From: a virus | Reading direction: 5' to 3' (one strand) | Length of the DNA stretch: 64,000 nt | Virus record (IMG/VR): IMGVR_UViG_3300010384_000001 | Shown: piece by piece, positions 18,948-60,844 of the stretch | How positions within the stretch are numbered: position 1 is the stretch's first letter | How the letters are laid out: each line of letters begins with the position of its first letter | Notes under the pieces: generated by a model | Database searches by the model: none | Told to the model about the DNA's origin: nothing | Seen by the model: only the letters and a program-made list of their open reading frames with translations | Position numbers and translations under genes: made by a program

Positions 18948-19055
18948 TAGACTCATGTCTAGATACTATAGCGACTTCTCTAGGATCCTAGTGACATCCG
19001 CGTAGAAAGAAGTCTATCATTTCTAATTACCTATTGCAATAGGAGTAACAAAACT

Positions 19056-21386
19056 ATGCGTATGCATGCAAACTATGGTGGTCTTCTGAATGGCCGTCTG
19101 AACGTGGCCCGCGAAGAAGACCAACAAGATGCAGTGGTCCTGGATGAAACTCAAGCCACGGCTACCGATGAAGTAACCGCAGAAACCCCAGTTGACGCTG
19201 TCGTCGAAACCCCTGCTGACGTGGTTGCTGAAGTTCCGGCTGAAACTCCGGCTGTTGACACTCCGGCAGATGGCGACGCATTTGTGGACGTCGTTCCGGC
19301 TGAAACGGTGGTTGATCCGTCCACTGCTGAAGCTACCGCTACTGGCGATGTGGTTGAGACCACTCTGGATGTGGCTGCAGAAACCCCGGAAGAAGTTGTA
19401 GCCGATACTGAACCTCTGGCAGATCCGCTGGCTGAAACCTCGCTGGTTGATGCTCCGCTGGAAGATGCCGCCGCCGCTTCGGTTGAGCCGTCGGTTGGTG
19501 AAACTACGGCTGACGTTACCACCGATGTGGATAGCGGTGCCGTGGTCGACGCTGGTACGGACGCAGGCGCTGACGTTGCTGCCGACGCCTCGGCTGCTGC
19601 CACGGTCGACCAAGGTGTTGATGCTACTGGCGATACACTCGCAGCTACCGTAGAAGAAACCCCGGCTACCGATGGCGTGGTTGCAACCACTGAAGTTGAG
19701 ACTCCGGCTGATGTGAATGTTGCTGACACCGTTGAAGGTGAAGCTGCAGCTGCTGACGTTGAAGCTGCTCCGGTTGTCGATGAAGTCCCGGCTGAAGCTG
19801 CTGCGGAGGTTCCGGCTGATGTGAATGTTGCTGAGACGCCTGCGGAAGAAACCCCGGCGGAAGTGGCTGCTGAGACGCCTGCCGACGCTGTCGTCGAGAC
19901 TCCGGCAGAGACGGTTGAAGAAACGCCTGCTGATCCGGTTGCTGACGCTGAAGTCGCAGCAGCTGCAATTCCTGATCTGGCAGTTGGTTCTGTTGTGGCT
20001 GATCCTGTCGCTGAAGAACCGGACGTTGGTACGGTTGAAGGCGGTGCCACTGGTGAAGCTGGTCTGACTGAAGAAGTCGCTGTCAACGACGGTGAAACGA
20101 ATGAAGTCGATCAGATCGATAGCTCGCTGCTGGAAGAAGGTGTCACGGAAGTTGATACCGACATCGATGGCGTGAATGCTTACGATGCCGACATCACCGA
20201 CATGAACGACGAACTGGATGATGTTACCGATAATGCTGGTAAGATCGAAGTAGCGGTGGAATCGCTCCGCATTATTGCTCAAAACGGTGGTCTGGATCGT
20301 TCCGGTGGCACGATTCTGAATCTGCACCTGCAAAGCCTGTATGCGAATATTCCGGGTATGGATGCTAAATCGCAACGTATGTCGATGGAAGCATTCGGCG
20401 GCGCTACGATGAGCAAAGTTGACGGTACGACGCTGGCGATGGAAGAAGCGAAGAGCAATCTGCGCAAGATCCTGGATCATATCGTCGAGATGATTCAACA
20501 GGGTATCGAGTATATCAAAGAAGCCTTTAAGAAGTACTTCGATGAATCCACTGCTCTGTATGTCAAGGCTAAGAAGCTCAAAGAACAAGGTACGAAAACC
20601 AATGGTCTTCCGACTGTTGATAGCTTCGTCGACAATGGTCTGGCTCGTGCTTTGTTCATTCCTGGCAAAGGTATCCGTGCTACGGAAGCCGCTAGTATTC
20701 TGTCGAGTGAAATTAGTAAAGTGATGTCTTCGGCAGAAGCGGGCTATGCTCAAGCTGAAGTGCTGATCTCCCTGATCAAGAGCACTGGTTCGGTTGATGC
20801 TGTGGCTAGTAAGATTCGCGGATCTTTTAGCGCCGGTGATAAAGTGTCGGCTGAGACGGTTGGTATCAATTCGGTTCCGGATGGTGCTGTGGTTACTCGT
20901 GATCGCGTGCTTCCTGGTAACCGAGCAGTCGTTAGTGTTTACCCGGCATCTAACAATGCACCAGTATCGGTGCTGGCTGCTAGCAAGATTCGTCTGGCTA
21001 CGTTTGATACGTCGATGTCTCCTCCTGAAGGCGCTAAGCTGGAAACCCTGTCGAAAGCAGACGCTGTGTCTGTTGCCAACATGGTTCAGCGCACCCTCAG
21101 CTATGTTCTGGCATTCAAGAAGAACATGGGTTCGATCGATAAGGTTAAAGGCGAACTGCTGGCTACCGTGCGTGCTGTTGCTGGTCAAGAAGGCGAGAGT
21201 GCTTCTGGTCTGTCGCAAACCGACATCGTGGCCCTGGCTAAGTGCGCTGCTCAATTCGCTGACCAACCGGCTTCGTCGTTCGTTCCGTATGCGCTCACCA
21301 CCTGCCGCGCTCTGCTGCACTACGCTGAGAAATCGCTGGCAATGCATGGTGCAACTGAAGCTGCTTCCGCTAAGGCTGCTGCTTAA
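19056..21386 (+). CDS. Hyper-acidic N-terminal tract fused to a domain paralogous to the next two genes (putative internal head / ejection-type protein)
   Basis: 776-aa ORF with an AGGAG SD. Residues ~355-500 align by eye with the N-terminal regions of the 444-aa and 435-aa neighbours. Confidence 0.85.
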   Translation: MRMHANYGGLLNGRLNVAREEDQQDAVVLDETQATATDEVTAETPVDAVVETPADVVAEVPAETPAVDTPADGDAFVDVVPAETVVDPSTAEATATGDVVETTLDVAAETPEEVVADTEPLADPLAETSLVDAPLEDAAAASVEPSVGETTADVTTDVDSGAVVDAGTDAGADVAADASAAATVDQGVDATGDTLAATVEETPATDGVVATTEVETPADVNVADTVEGEAAAADVEAAPVVDEVPAEAAAEVPADVNVAETPAEETPAEVAAETPADAVVETPAETVEETPADPVADAEVAAAAIPDLAVGSVVADPVAEEPDVGTVEGGATGEAGLTEEVAVNDGETNEVDQIDSSLLEEGVTEVDTDIDGVNAYDADITDMNDELDDVTDNAGKIEVAVESLRIIAQNGGLDRSGGTILNLHLQSLYANIPGMDAKSQRMSMEAFGGATMSKVDGTTLAMEEAKSNLRKILDHIVEMIQQGIEYIKEAFKKYFDESTALYVKAKKLKEQGTKTNGLPTVDSFVDNGLARALFIPGKGIRATEAASILSSEISKVMSSAEAGYAQAEVLISLIKSTGSVDAVASKIRGSFSAGDKVSAETVGINSVPDGAVVTRDRVLPGNRAVVSVYPASNNAPVSVLAASKIRLATFDTSMSPPEGAKLETLSKADAVSVANMVQRTLSYVLAFKKNMGSIDKVKGELLATVRAVAGQEGESASGLSQTDIVALAKCAAQFADQPASSFVPYALTTCRALLHYAEKSLAMHGATEAASAKAAA
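19113..20240 (+). repeat. Coding low-complexity acidic repeat (ETPA/DVVA-type)
   Basis: About 375 consecutive codons contain no K/R/H and, by my count, about 100 D/E. Degenerate units such as ETPADAVVETPA and EVPADVNVAETPAEE recur. Confidence 0.85.
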
Positions 21387-21401
21387 GTTAAGCAATTAAA
21401 G

Positions 21402-51138: not shown

Positions 51139-52290
51139 ATGAAAAATATTCGCATTGCTCGTTATCCAGCCGGAACCTCGTGCGTCGAGAACGGTCATCT
51201 TCTTCAACAGCAACTGAAACATCTGTTTGAAAACTGCATCATTGATGCGGATACGGGAGCCACCAAGACCAACCGCTTGTTCTTGACATTGCATCCTAAC
51301 TCATCGACGTTAGCAAACGACGTCTTGACGATGTGGATGAATTCGCTGACAATCAACTATGCTACGAAAGAAGATATCAGCGAAACTTTCAAAGCAGCCG
51401 GAACAGATGTGTCGAAAGAACACATCACTTCGGTTAGTATTACTATTGACAACGTTCTATACGAAGATCTGCTGCCGGTCACGAACATTCCAGACAACCA
51501 TGTAATCCAGTTTACCTTCAGCAAGAAGATCAAGAATAATGCCGACTATCAGTATCTGAATCTGATGCGTGATATTCTTGCTAATGGCACTGTGAAGACG
51601 GATCGCACAGGCACCGGCACGACTTCTGTGTTTGGTCGCCAGATGCGTTTCGATTTGAACGAAGGCATTCCTCTTTTGACTACGAAGAAGGTGCATCTCA
51701 AATCTATTGTCCATGAGCTGATCTGGTTCCTGGCAGGCGATACCAATGTTAAGTATCTGCAAGATAACGGTGTAACCATCTGGGATGAGTGGGCTGATAA
51801 GAATGGTGAACTCGGTCCCGTATACGGTGCACAATGGCGTAAGTGGCATGATGTCCAAATCCTTCATCCTGAACGTCATGCTGAAGAAATTAAAATCTTC
51901 AAAAAGCAAGGCTATCTTCCTACTGGTTCTGCACGTCGTGATCTAGTTCCGGGTGAATACATGATGTTGGAGAAATTCATCGACCAGATCGAAGAGGTCA
52001 TGAATACTCTCAAGAATAATCCTGATTCGCGTCGCATTATCGTTTCGGCTTGGAACGTGGCTGAACTACCGCTGATGAAGCTGGCTCCTTGCCATTCACT
52101 GTTTCAATTCTACGTAACTGATTTGACTGTAACTGAACGAGCCGAAATGTCTACGAGCCGCGAACATCATCGTTTTAAAGACACGATGTGGTTCCAAGGG
52201 ATGGCTAATGGTAATCGGGAAAAGTACCACGCTATTTTCGATGAAGAAGATATTCCGCGGCAGCGTTTGTCTTGCCAGTTGTACCAGCGT
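51139..52290 (+). CDS. thyA: Thymidylate synthase, exon 1 (with ~135-aa N-terminal extension)
   Basis: From aa ~137 it reads [30 protein letters not shown]..., then [41 protein letters not shown] and LSCQLYQR. The frame then derails into SLN-stop. Confidence 0.9.
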
Positions 52291-53406
52291 TCGCTTAACT
52301 GAGCGCCTCTTAGGAGTGATCCTAAGAGCAAATCTCTCTAAAACGGGAACCTCTCAGAAATGAGACAATCCGTTGCTAAACGGTAAGTAACAAACATTGA
52401 ATGGTAGTCCTAGTAATATACTATGTCTTTATTACGAAAGCATGACATGGAATTTACAGGAGTATACATTCTAACCAACCCAAGAACTGGTGAGTTCTAT
52501 GTTGGTAGTTCTCAGAACATCAAAAAACGAATTGAACGACACATTCGTGAATTGAACCAAGGCATTCATCATTGCTCTAAGTTTCAAGCAGCTTGGAAGA
52601 AAGATCCATATTTCCAAGTAACGATATTCCCAACAGAAACAAGGGAAGACGCTTACGAGTTAGAACAAGAATTACTCGATCGTTACTCAGCCACAAAACT
52701 GTTACTCAATGTACTCCTTGTTGCTAAGGGAGGCGGTGATACACTTACGCGAGATCCTAAACGTGAGGAACGTATCGCTAGAATCAAACAGACATTAATT
52801 AACAGAATGCATGAGTTAACGAAAGAGGAGAAGAGATTACTCTTCGGAAGACCAGGTTCAAAAAATGGCATGTGGGGCCGAATCCACACTGATGAAGTTA
52901 AGAAGCGTATTTCTGAAGTACACAAAGGAAACACGTATAACTTAGGTGCAGTATTTAGCGCTGAACATCGTCGCAAGATCTCTGAGAATGCATCAAAACG
53001 AGTAGGTGAATTAAATCCGTTCTACGGAAAGGTTCATAGCGAAGAAACTAGGAAACGACTATCTGAACTTGGTAAAGCCAGAGATACGTTACCTGCTAAT
53101 TCTCGTAAAGTTAAAGTTGACAATAAAGTCTACGAATCACTGACTGAAGCTTCTCGTCAACTAAACATTTCACCAGCCCTGATGGTTTATCGAATCAATA
53201 GCAGTAAAGATAAATATTCGGGTTACAGTTATCTTACCGAAATGCCCAACGACTAGCCTTTAAGGCGTAGGCTCCAAGTGGAGTCGAAACGGGAGAGGTC
53301 TCGGAAATGAGATCGTGATATAGTCTGCTCTGCATGGCGACATGCAGCAGTTAGGAATTGAAGAAACCTAACGGGAATAGTCTAACGAACTATTCTGAAC
53401 ACAATG
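52291..53406 (+). mobile_element. Group I intron (T4 td-like, subgroup IA2-type) carrying a homing endonuclease gene
   Basis: The 5' exon ends in U (52290) and the intron ends in G (53406). There is a P1 pairing GCGU/GCGC and a P2 hairpin at 52307-52328. The core segments strongly resemble the T4 td intron as I remember it. Joining the exons restores ...[14 protein letters not shown]... in frame. Confidence 0.85.
52423..53256 (+). CDS. GIY-YIG homing endonuclease (I-TevI-like) encoded within the intron
   Basis: GVYILTNPRTGEFYVGSSQNIKKRIERH carries GIY...YVG and the conserved R. There are NUMOD3-like repeats (GMWGRIHTDEVKKRISE, NPFYGKVHSEETRKRLSE) and a C-terminal HTH-like YESLTEASRQLNISPALMVYRI. 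Confidence 0.9.
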   Translation: MSLLRKHDMEFTGVYILTNPRTGEFYVGSSQNIKKRIERHIRELNQGIHHCSKFQAAWKKDPYFQVTIFPTETREDAYELEQELLDRYSATKLLLNVLLVAKGGGDTLTRDPKREERIARIKQTLINRMHELTKEEKRLLFGRPGSKNGMWGRIHTDEVKKRISEVHKGNTYNLGAVFSAEHRRKISENASKRVGELNPFYGKVHSEETRKRLSELGKARDTLPANSRKVKVDNKVYESLTEASRQLNISPALMVYRINSSKDKYSGYSYLTEMPND

Positions 53407-53703
53407 TCAGCCGACGTCTTCCTCGGTGTGCCGTTCAATATCGCTTCGTATGCAATCCTGACGCACATGTTTGCTCAACAGCTTAATATGGCTGTCGGTG
53501 ACTTTGTTTGGACTGGTGGTGATGTTCATCTGTACTCGAACCACATGCAACAAGTTGAGACCCAGCTGCAGCGCACCTGGCGCGAACTGCCTAAACTGAA
53601 GTTTACCCGTAAACCAGCTTCAATTTACGATTACAAGTTTGAAGACTTCGAAATCGTAGGTTACGATCCTCATCCAGGCATCAAAGCTCCTGTGGCGGTG
53701 TGA
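53407..53703 (+). CDS. thyA: Thymidylate synthase, exon 2
   Basis: [21 protein letters not shown]...[15 protein letters not shown]...[14 protein letters not shown] is nearly identical in pattern to the E. coli ThyA C-terminus. Confidence 0.9.
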
Positions 53704-59374: not shown

Positions 59375-60844
59375 ATGTTAGAACTTATTAAACCTTTCAA
59401 TATCATCCTCTGGTGTGACACCTACAAGTTCGACCACGTCTATCAGATGCCTAAGAAATCTAAGCGACTGGTATCAGCAGTAGTGCCGCGTAAGAAAACG
59501 TGGTTTACTGATGAAATCGTCGCAATGGGTCAAACCTTTATTTCGCATGTGTTTGCTACGGCGCGACTCGAGCAGTGGATGATTGACGAAGCAGAAGTTG
59601 AAGTCACTGAGCAAGGTTATACTTTCAACCGTGAAGGTTGGGAATACATCCTCCGTGTTTACGGTGGTCGCATTCCCCTTACTTTCTTTGGTGTGGAAGA
59701 AGGTCGTATCGTTAAACCACAAACACCGATTCTTCTTGTTACTCATGAAGACGAACAAGTCAAATGGCTGGTTCCGTATTTTGAGCCAGTGATTCAATCG
59801 ACGGTCTGGTCGATGTCGACGACTGCTTCGATTTGCCGCTATATGCGTAAAGTGGCTGCTAAGTATTTCAAGATGACTGGCGGTAACATGGCCATGCTTG
59901 ATTACTTCGTACACTTCTTTGGTGATCGTGGTGCAGATTCTCCGGACGAAACACCTGTTCTCAAAGGCATGGCGCACGCGGCAATCTTCAAAGGTAGCGA
60001 TTGTGGACGCGCTAATGGGTACATTAAGCGTCTCTACAACACCGGTAAACCTCGCACTAGTTCTGTTGTAGCTACCGAGCACACCACCATGTGCTTGAAT
60101 TCTAATGCTGAAGCAAAAGATGACTTCGGTGCTATGCAGATGGTTATGGAACTTCTGCACCGTGTGGCGGCTCGTGCCAAAGCCGGTATTGGTATTCCTG
60201 TGGCTTCTGCTGTTCCTGATACCTACGATGATGAACGTTTCGTAAGGGAGTTCATTCCGAAGTTCAAGGACGAAATCCTTAACTGCGGTGCTCGCCTTGT
60301 GACTCGTCCTGACTCAGGTGACCCAACTACTAAGCTGGCGCAAGTGTTAGGCTGGCTGGAAGAGACTTTTGGTTCGACTCCGAATGACGCTGGTTATCGT
60401 AATCTGCCGTGGGCCGTTGGCGCGCTGTATGGTGACGGTATCAACGTAGAGTCGTTCGAGTCTGTCATTAAAGGTGCTGTCGATAAAGGCTGGTGCGTTG
60501 ACAATTTCCTGTTGGGTTGCGGTGGCGGTATCGCTAACGATGGTAGCCGCGACTGGTTTAGCTTCAGCATGAAGGTTATTGCTGAGTTCCGTGACGGCGG
60601 CTGGAAACGTGTTCTGAAAGAGCCGAAATCCGATCTTGGTAAGAAATCCTTGTCGGGTCTGGTGCGTTGCCGTGAAGATGAAAACGGTAACCTCGAAGTG
60701 TATGATGCTATTAACGAGAACAGCTTGTATTCGTTCTTTACTCCAGGTCCGGGACACCGCCTGTGGTTGAACGAAGGTCGTCGTGAATGGCGTCAGAAAT
60801 TCGAAGAGGACGTTTGCGTTCGTGCTCTTGAAGGTATTGACTAA
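59375..60844 (+). CDS. nadV: Nicotinamide phosphoribosyltransferase (NAMPT/NadV)
   Basis: 489 aa. The N-terminal ...ILWCDTYKFDH..., FGDRGADS, YGDGIN and GCGGGI segments fit NAMPT-family landmarks, and it is adjacent to the NMNAT gene. Confidence 0.8.
   Translation: MLELIKPFNIILWCDTYKFDHVYQMPKKSKRLVSAVVPRKKTWFTDEIVAMGQTFISHVFATARLEQWMIDEAEVEVTEQGYTFNREGWEYILRVYGGRIPLTFFGVEEGRIVKPQTPILLVTHEDEQVKWLVPYFEPVIQSTVWSMSTTASICRYMRKVAAKYFKMTGGNMAMLDYFVHFFGDRGADSPDETPVLKGMAHAAIFKGSDCGRANGYIKRLYNTGKPRTSSVVATEHTTMCLNSNAEAKDDFGAMQMVMELLHRVAARAKAGIGIPVASAVPDTYDDERFVREFIPKFKDEILNCGARLVTRPDSGDPTTKLAQVLGWLEETFGSTPNDAGYRNLPWAVGALYGDGINVESFESVIKGAVDKGWCVDNFLLGCGGGIANDGSRDWFSFSMKVIAEFRDGGWKRVLKEPKSDLGKKSLSGLVRCREDENGNLEVYDAINENSLYSFFTPGPGHRLWLNEGRREWRQKFEEDVCVRALEGID

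Follow-up and report, generated by a model that had tools for sequence, protein, structure and literature searches.

In the 64,000-nucleotide (nt) stretch of viral DNA analysed here (record IMGVR_UViG_3300010384_000001 of IMG/VR; hereafter the window), the thymidylate synthase gene thyA is split in two by an intervening sequence that is very likely a mobile group I intron of the phage T4 td type (subgroup IA2), one loop of which holds a gene for a GIY-YIG homing endonuclease. An earlier note, made from the DNA letters without database searches, had described the element as a group I intron that resembles td and encodes a GIY-YIG homing endonuclease, and core homology, covariation and Pfam matches bear this description out. 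The intron follows the codon of a conserved arginine, a site shared with the Bacillus thyA intron that encodes I-BmoI and with introns in published jumbo phages, and the element is a clear but ordinary new example of a known one.

Results

Interruption of thyA and fold of the intervening RNA

The thyA frame is interrupted after T52290 (…YQR) and resumes at T53407 (SADVFLG…), so that the intervening stretch, 52291-53406, comprises 1116 nt; the upstream open reading frame (ORF), 51139-52302, terminates at a TGA at 52300-52302. Joining T52290 to T53407 makes the frame continuous in phase 0 with the break between codons, excision of 52291-53406 brings back the conserved ThyA motif …CQLYQR/… in frame (the slash marks the insertion site), and the spliced junction is expected to read …UACCAGCGU-UCAGCCGAC. 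In agreement with this, the Pfam profile Thymidylat_synt is divided between the two parts, residues 138-328 of exon 1 matching profile positions 2-156 and exon 2 matching positions 169-266. The frame break and its phase-0 repair, as proposed in the earlier note, are therefore confirmed by the ORFs, the exon sequences and the two Pfam halves. The break lies directly 3' of the codon of the YQR arginine, which is catalytic in thymidylate synthases, and inside the conserved stretch YQRSADVFLG; the uninterrupted ThyA homologues of two jumbo-phage contigs (L019 and L020) read …CQLYQRSAD[MV]FLGVPFN across the window's junction.

The intervening sequence has the boundaries and the 5' helices that the note had listed: it is preceded by U and its last base is G, GCGC (52303-52306) pairs with exon GCGU (52287-52290) to give the U52290·G52303 wobble, and the 9-bp hairpin at 52307-52328 is present as 52307-52315/52320-52328 with a GUGA loop. 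For the fold as a whole we aligned 12 ORF-deleted introns, i.e. that of the window, eight relatives at the window's site and three td introns at the T4 site. Unconstrained RNAalifold recovers P1, P2, P3, P4, P5, P6, P8, P9 and P9.2 from this set, with P3 spanning the site of the ORF, and finds compensatory changes in 29 of 48 pairs. With P7 added as a pseudoknot, 98.0% of the pair cells are standard pairs versus 33-44% when the partners are slid by 1-3 columns, and both-sided changes occur in 30 of 53 pairs; none of 500 shuffles reached the observed values. These counts leave out the variable hairpins P7.1, P7.2 and P9.1, which MAFFT aligns imperfectly. The wobble at the 5' splice site is U·G in all 12 aligned introns, the terminal base is G in 14 of 14 introns compared, and the ORF-deleted RNA of the window folds into the same helices on its own (z = -6.07). 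Because of this fold score and the massive covariation in the family alignment, both far beyond chance, we regard the intron as established at the sequence level.

The likeness to the T4 td core, to which the note had pointed, is real when checked against the T4T record (L002). The two halves of the window's intron align with T4 td and the ORF-deleted fold gives td-type helices. J3/4-P4-P5, J6/7-P7 and J8/7-P7'-P9 are near-identical between the window, T4 td and the ORF-less T4-site intron of Salmonella phage SEA1 (L003), and P2, P3, P7.1, P7.2, P8, P9.1 and P9.2 differ in sequence. T4 td interrupts the same host gene, its core is homologous to that of the window (~66% identity over ORF-deleted columns), and its helix set, including P7.1, P7.2, P9.1 and P9.2, matches that of the window. 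The extra hairpins P7.1 and P7.2 between P7 and P3' are a hallmark of subgroup IA and are assigned to IA2. Both introns carry a GIY-YIG ORF in the P6a loop, the 3' end of which enters P6a, P6 and P7; in T4 td this overlap of the ORF with the ribozyme core has been described as 'core creep' (PMC3073962).

The coordinates of all features are collected in Table 1.

Table 1. Exons, intron, helices and endonuclease gene of the interrupted thyA of the window.
Feature	Position	Strand	Description and basis
thyA exon 1	51139..52290	+	longest ORF; ThyA domain from ~51550; ends …TAC CAG CGT (YQR); Pfam
CAGCG (Gln-Arg codons)	52285..52289 (-6..-2)	+	homologue of CAACG in T4 td and GCCCG of I-BmoI; predicted cleavage motif in intronless allele
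Group IA2 (td-type) intron	52291..53406	+	1116 nt; Rfam half-matches, td alignment, covariation, fold
P1	52287-52293 with 52300-52306	+	U52290·G52303 wobble at 5' splice site; covariation, fold
Internal guide	52299-52306	+	5' part CUGA (52299-52302) can pair with UCAG of exon 2 (53407-53410; P10)
P2 hairpin	52307..52328	+	9 bp, GUGA loop; 6 of 6 counted pairs covary
P3 5' strand	52333-52338	+	followed by J3/4; td alignment, covariation
P4	52342-52347/52369-52374	+	td alignment, covariation
P5	52352-52356/52361-52365	+	td alignment, covariation
P6 5' strand	52375-52376	+	td alignment, covariation
P6a 5' strand (CGGUAAG)	52381..52387	+	partner 53233-53239, within last codons of ORF; fold
Homing endonuclease ORF	52423..53256	+	in P6a loop; 834 nt; 277 amino acids from first ATG; last ~24 nt form P6a 3', P6 3', J6/7 and P7 5'
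P7	53251-53255 (5') / 53321-53325 (3')	+	pseudoknot; J8/7 precedes 3' strand; U-A to C-G in 3 sequences
P7.1	53256-53259/53263-53266	+	single-sequence fold and by-eye td comparison
P7.2	53270-53275/53280-53285	+	single-sequence fold and by-eye td comparison
P3 3' strand	53291-53296	+	covariation, fold
P8	53297-53303/53308-53314	+	covariation, fold
P9	53330-53336/53341-53347	+	td alignment, covariation, fold
P9.1	53350-53355/53367-53372	+	single-sequence fold, td comparison
P9.2	53374-53381/53389-53396	+	covariation, fold; terminal base of the intron is G53406
thyA exon 2	53407..53703	+	runs to stop; Pfam; first ~40 nt are the predicted endonuclease-binding region

The insertion site and its guide sequence

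The T4 td intron lies after FLG (GGT/CTA) and the intron of the window after QR (CGT/TCA), seven codons or 21 nt upstream; the T4 position between the FLG and L/VPF codons is uninterrupted in the window. The distance given in the note, and with it the placement beside the I-TevI cut in intronless td, is thus correct by comparison with the T4T record. What did not hold is the implied novelty of a site-shifted relative: the window's site is not new and is the Arg-codon site of the Bacillus thyA/I-BmoI intron, which is also occupied in published jumbo phages. In the SPbeta-type phage SPbetaL1 (L001), exon 1 ends …GTA AGA GCC CGT and exon 2 begins AGT AAT GAT (VRAR/SND), so that the boundary at the Arg codon is that of the window and the insertion site in the Bacillus intron (B. 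mojavensis and SPbeta-type phages) is identical in the protein frame (GCC CGT/AGT AAT GA versus CAG CGT/TCA GCC GA). Intronless thyA of the I-BmoI system reads GCCCGT at -6 to -1, with a critical G at -2 that is replaced by T in the intron-bearing allele (PMC3161791, PMC5009752). Similarly, the window has CAGCGT at -6 to -1, with G at -2, T at -1 and the intron directly after the conserved Arg codon, and the intron end …ACAATG places T at -2 in the intron-bearing allele; both systems therefore have G at -2 without and T at -2 with the intron. Unlike the window, Bacillus has the ORF in P8 instead of P6a, its P4-P6 are not td-like, and its host ThyA is of another type (RARS versus YQRS).

The guide follows the site. 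In P1 the pair next to the wobble is C-G in 9 of 9 introns at the Arg site and G-C in 3 of 3 introns at the T4 site, tracking the 5' exon (GCGU versus GGGU), and the window's guide GCGC differs accordingly from that of T4, GCCU(G/A). P10, formed between the opening tetranucleotide of exon 2 and the four bases that immediately precede the P1 portion of the guide, covaries as well: CUGA:UCAG in the window and its metagenomic relative L005, UUGA:UCAA in Dickeya phage JA29, CACU:AGUG in Erwinia phage Joad and L017, and AACU:AGUU in L016. Since P1 and P10 both covary with the exons, the sequences indicate a ribozyme that is adapted to the Arg-codon position and not one that arrived by a recent accidental insertion.

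The homing endonuclease and its predicted cleavage motif

The endonuclease probably starts at the second ATG, 52447, giving a protein of 269 amino acids (MEFTGVY…), because this start matches the JGI gene call (P0001, 269 amino acids, 100% identity) and the spacing in I-TevI and I-BmoI. The protein matches Pfam GIY-YIG (PF01541, N-terminal, 1.8e-11), NUMOD3 (PF07460, 2.2e-15, two stretches) and I-TevI_DNA-bd (PF20987, 1.8e-07), the latter with a C-terminal helix-turn-helix, and its only matches in PDB are the two I-TevI domains (1i3j at 5e-10). Among 12 homologues the catalytic residues Y18, R28, H32, E73 and N88 (numbering of the 269-residue protein) are invariant and Y7 is nearly so. The 'I-TevI-like' ORF of the note is thus indeed a GIY-YIG homing endonuclease, but it is nearer to the I-BmoI type, with 37% identity to the SPbeta enzyme of that type and 28% to I-TevI, and it is without a zinc finger: the four zinc-finger cysteines of I-TevI align with residues other than cysteine, and NUMOD3 repeats stand in their place. 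The Bacillus-type enzyme has the same architecture, and I-BmoI also lacks the zinc finger (PMC5009752).

In T4 td, I-TevI cuts 23-25 nt upstream of the site of its own intron, within the Gln-Arg codons (CA^AC^G). For I-BmoI the cleavage motif is GCCCG, the last base of which is the critical G at -2 (PMC3161791, PMC5009752), and the site spans -10 to +41. A C/G-N-N-C-G pentamer with G at -2 is found in every Arg-site relative examined, as this G occupies the middle position of the conserved Arg codon. Based on these comparisons, we consider it fairly probable that the window's enzyme would cleave 2-4 nt upstream of the insertion site and bind on the exon 2 side.

Upstream of the endonuclease start (52400-52426) lies the motif AATGGTAGTCCTAGTAATATACTATG (GGTA-NN-CC-WAG…TATG), and motifs of this type occur at the same distance in L005, L007, L010, L013, L016 and L017. 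At the equivalent place T4 td has an intron-internal late promoter. A hairpin at the ribosome-binding site is also located there in T4 td (PMC3073962). The window's motif may act as a promoter or in the control of translation. At the other end of the gene, some endonuclease ORFs (L007, L016 and L017) read through P7 into P7.1/P7.2 (…TEMPNDYCESK; …ECPSTIETAAQADKGVE), an overlap of ORF and ribozyme core more extreme than in T4.

Relatives and distribution

A protein search with the endonuclease gave 84 homologues besides the identical source gene P0001. Six metagenomic homologues led to ten loci on seven distinct contigs; all ten loci lie between two thymidylate synthase fragments, and in the seven distinct contigs, the junctions of which were read, the intron follows the same CGT codon. 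Among deposited phages the best matches include Dickeya phage JA29, the phiKZ-like Pseudomonas phages PA02, OMKO1 and SL2, and Erwinia phages Joad and RisingSun. The junctions of JA29, PA02 and Joad were read, and all three have a td-like intron at the window's codon, with cores 67-70% identical to that of the window and endonucleases 36-43% identical; in each of the 10 Arg-site relatives that have a homologous endonuclease, thyA is split and the interruption follows this CGT codon. In the records of JA29, PA02 and Joad the locus is given as 'thymidylate synthase / GIY-YIG homing endonuclease / thymidylate synthase', with the intron not annotated. Unlike in the window, where the ORF is in P6a, that of PA02 is in P9.1, and homologous endonuclease genes are thus found in three loops: P6a (window type), P9.1 (PA02) and P8 (Bacillus).

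The intronless alleles of L019 and L020, the ThyA proteins of which are ~60% identical to that of the window, read …TATCAGCGT AGTGC…, and the intron distribution is patchy, as expected of a mobile element. In a megablast search against phage records, positions 30000-52290 of the window gave no match and the intron region only short matches to the core. An Rfam scan of the whole window at E <= 0.05 gave no match and hence no sign of further introns.

Over ORF-deleted columns the window's core shares 84% identity with L005, 67-73% with the remaining introns at the Arg site and 66-68% with those at the T4 site; the latter three are 92-95% identical among themselves. In a crude midpoint-rooted neighbor-joining tree, which is small and built on imperfectly aligned variable hairpins, the T4-site introns adjoin those of PA02 and L013, and the P4 variant ACGGGG/CCCGU is common to all of them; this tree is compatible with the T4 site as the derived one.

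Other features of the window

The ThyA protein has an in-frame N-terminal extension of 137 amino acids (51139-51549), and the usual ThyA start position is without a start codon. Pfam and PHROG searches assigned the extension to no family. It is also conserved in L005, where exon 1 can be aligned from residue 1 onwards at an overall identity of 61%, and the ThyA proteins of L019 and L020 have a normal start (MKQYLDLL…). Compared with T4/E. coli-type enzymes, ThyA also carries two long insertions (~51850-51985, ending …EKF, and ~52105-52265, ending …IPRQR), the positions of which are common to L005, L019 and L020; exon 1 of PA02 is long too.

Judged from a conserved virion protein, the source, a jumbo phage, is an uncultured member of the broad phiKZ-related group: this protein is 48% identical to one of the Burkholderia jumbo phage FLC9, and phiKZ-related phages of Pseudomonas, Erwinia and Ralstonia encode further homologues. 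Elsewhere in the window, two ORFs on opposite strands overlap almost fully (19023-21395 on the - strand, 790 amino acids; 19056-21386 on the + strand, 776 amino acids), and the - strand ORF is probably spurious because the ORF on the + strand has a PHROG match to an internal head protein. Positions 59375-60844 encode a nicotinamide phosphoribosyl transferase homologue (PHROG 448, 1.5e-104), an NAD-salvage gene.

Discussion

Combining the fold, the exon junctions and the comparison with the T4 and Bacillus systems, we suggest the following model: (i) the RNA would fold into the P1-P9.2 core, in which the guide CUGA-GCGC (52299-52306) pairs with both exon ends, (ii) guanosine-initiated self-splicing would join U52290 to U53407 and give an intact ThyA mRNA, (iii) the enzyme encoded in the P6a loop, a member of the I-BmoI/I-TevI family, would bind intronless thyA on the exon 2 side at about +1 to +40, (iv) in the manner of I-BmoI, it would nick both strands in CAGCG, 2-4 nt upstream of the insertion site, (v) repair from an intron-bearing genome would copy the intron into the cleaved allele (homing), and (vi) the intron-bearing allele would resist cleavage since the intron 3' end, …ACAAUG, replaces the cleavage motif. 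We infer the splicing activity, the endonuclease activity and the cut site from sequence.

Several observations weigh against parts of this model. With the group I intron model RF00028 of Rfam, nothing in the intact window reached the gathering score (50 bits), and the 1.3-kb region around the intron gave two half-matches of 24.1 bits (P1 to the P6 5' strand) and 22.2 bits (P7-P9), with E = 0.001 and 0.004. Synonymous identity between the window and L005, its closest relative, shows no gradient rising near the junction as would be left by co-conversion, so that nothing points to recent homing. The cut site is modelled on I-BmoI, to which the enzyme is only 37% identical, and the ORF lies in P6a as in T4/I-TevI and not in P8 as in Bacillus, which leaves room for an I-TevI-like geometry. 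As to the RF00028 search, which the note had proposed as a check, the failure to reach the gathering score stands beside two partial matches, and the match is split because the 834-nt ORF interrupts the model; the PA02 intron (L011), with its uninterrupted core, scores 69.4 bits against the 50-bit threshold, and the ORF-less T4-type intron of SEA1 falls below the gathering score.

If the intron were a decaying relic, with splicing lost or the endonuclease dead, ThyA would be non-functional or made as two separately translated fragments. Such decay would fit the lack of signs of recent homing, the GenBank records of relatives that annotate two thymidylate synthase coding sequences, and the ATG with which the intron ends (53404-53406) and which opens an ORF of 99 amino acids over exon 2 in frame. 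However, T4 td, which is known to splice, also ends …AUAAUG in frame with exon 2; every core helix is kept by compensatory changes across the relatives, implying selection on the fold; the endonuclease ORF is intact with all catalytic residues present; and the conserved YQRSADVFLG stretch is broken directly behind its arginine codon. We therefore regard decay as very improbable. A different question is whether an intron as described here is served by an enzyme with the geometry of I-TevI, with binding expected around its own insertion site and cleavage ~25 nt upstream at CAGCG 52261-52265, the motif to which the note had pointed. This pentamer does exist at -30 to -26, also at the same place in L005, and the ORF is in the same loop as that of I-TevI with the same 3' overlap (…AAAUGCCYAACGACUA). 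Yet L019 and L020 have no CNNNG at -30 to -26, so that the motif has no counterpart in these intronless alleles, and as a cut site we rejected it. Moreover, the T4 motif at -27 to -23 is the Gln-Arg codon pair, the homologue of which in the window is the CAGCG at 52285-52289 (-6 to -2); all Arg-site alleles examined have G at -2; the window's enzyme is closer to the I-BmoI type; and it is without the zinc finger, an element that the title of one paper terms a distance determinant in the I-TevI linker. Together these points make the I-TevI geometry unlikely, if less so than decay, and we favor an I-BmoI-like cut within the Gln-Arg codons.

For annotation, the two thyA pieces, including the 99-residue 'second thymidylate synthase' ORF, should be joined as one gene (51139..52290 + 53407..53703), and the same applies to several GenBank records of jumbo phages. 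The final ATG of the intron is in frame with exon 2 (53404-53703), and gene callers report the resulting ORF as a separate thymidylate synthase; the GenBank entries for JA29, PA02 and Joad contain artefacts of this type as well. In SEA1 an ORF-less td intron of 250 nt at the T4 site (1704-1953) is annotated as two genes, td2 and td1.

More generally, the window adds a well-supported example to a pattern in which td-like introns sit at the active-site Arg codon of thyA in phiKZ-related and other jumbo phages. Our searches of the literature found no paper that describes the thyA introns of jumbo phages, and within that literature the pattern appears not to have been written up. The window's element mixes both known systems in that a td-like core and an I-TevI-like P6a ORF are combined with the site and the endonuclease type of I-BmoI. 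Because homologous endonuclease genes are present in P6a, P9.1 and P8, the distribution supports the notion that ribozyme and endonuclease have moved independently of each other. For phiKZ-like phages, the use of an intron endonuclease as a weapon in competition has been demonstrated (PMC11620839), and by analogy only, the thyA element could have a similar role.

As a tentative scenario, to which we give less than even weight, the Arg-codon site could be the ancestral home of a large and diverse td-like lineage, from which the T4 td intron could have branched off with a change of site. In that case a ribozyme of the td type would have moved by 21 nt within one gene, between the cleavage and the binding sites of an endonuclease, with its guide retuned, and would be an instance from nature of the 'escape to a new target site' that has been proposed as a step in the life cycles of homing endonucleases (PMC5009752). 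Elements of the window type would then be the intermediate that links the T4 td and I-BmoI systems. These introns offer comparative material on the adaptation of guide sequences and of cleavage preferences to a change of intron site.

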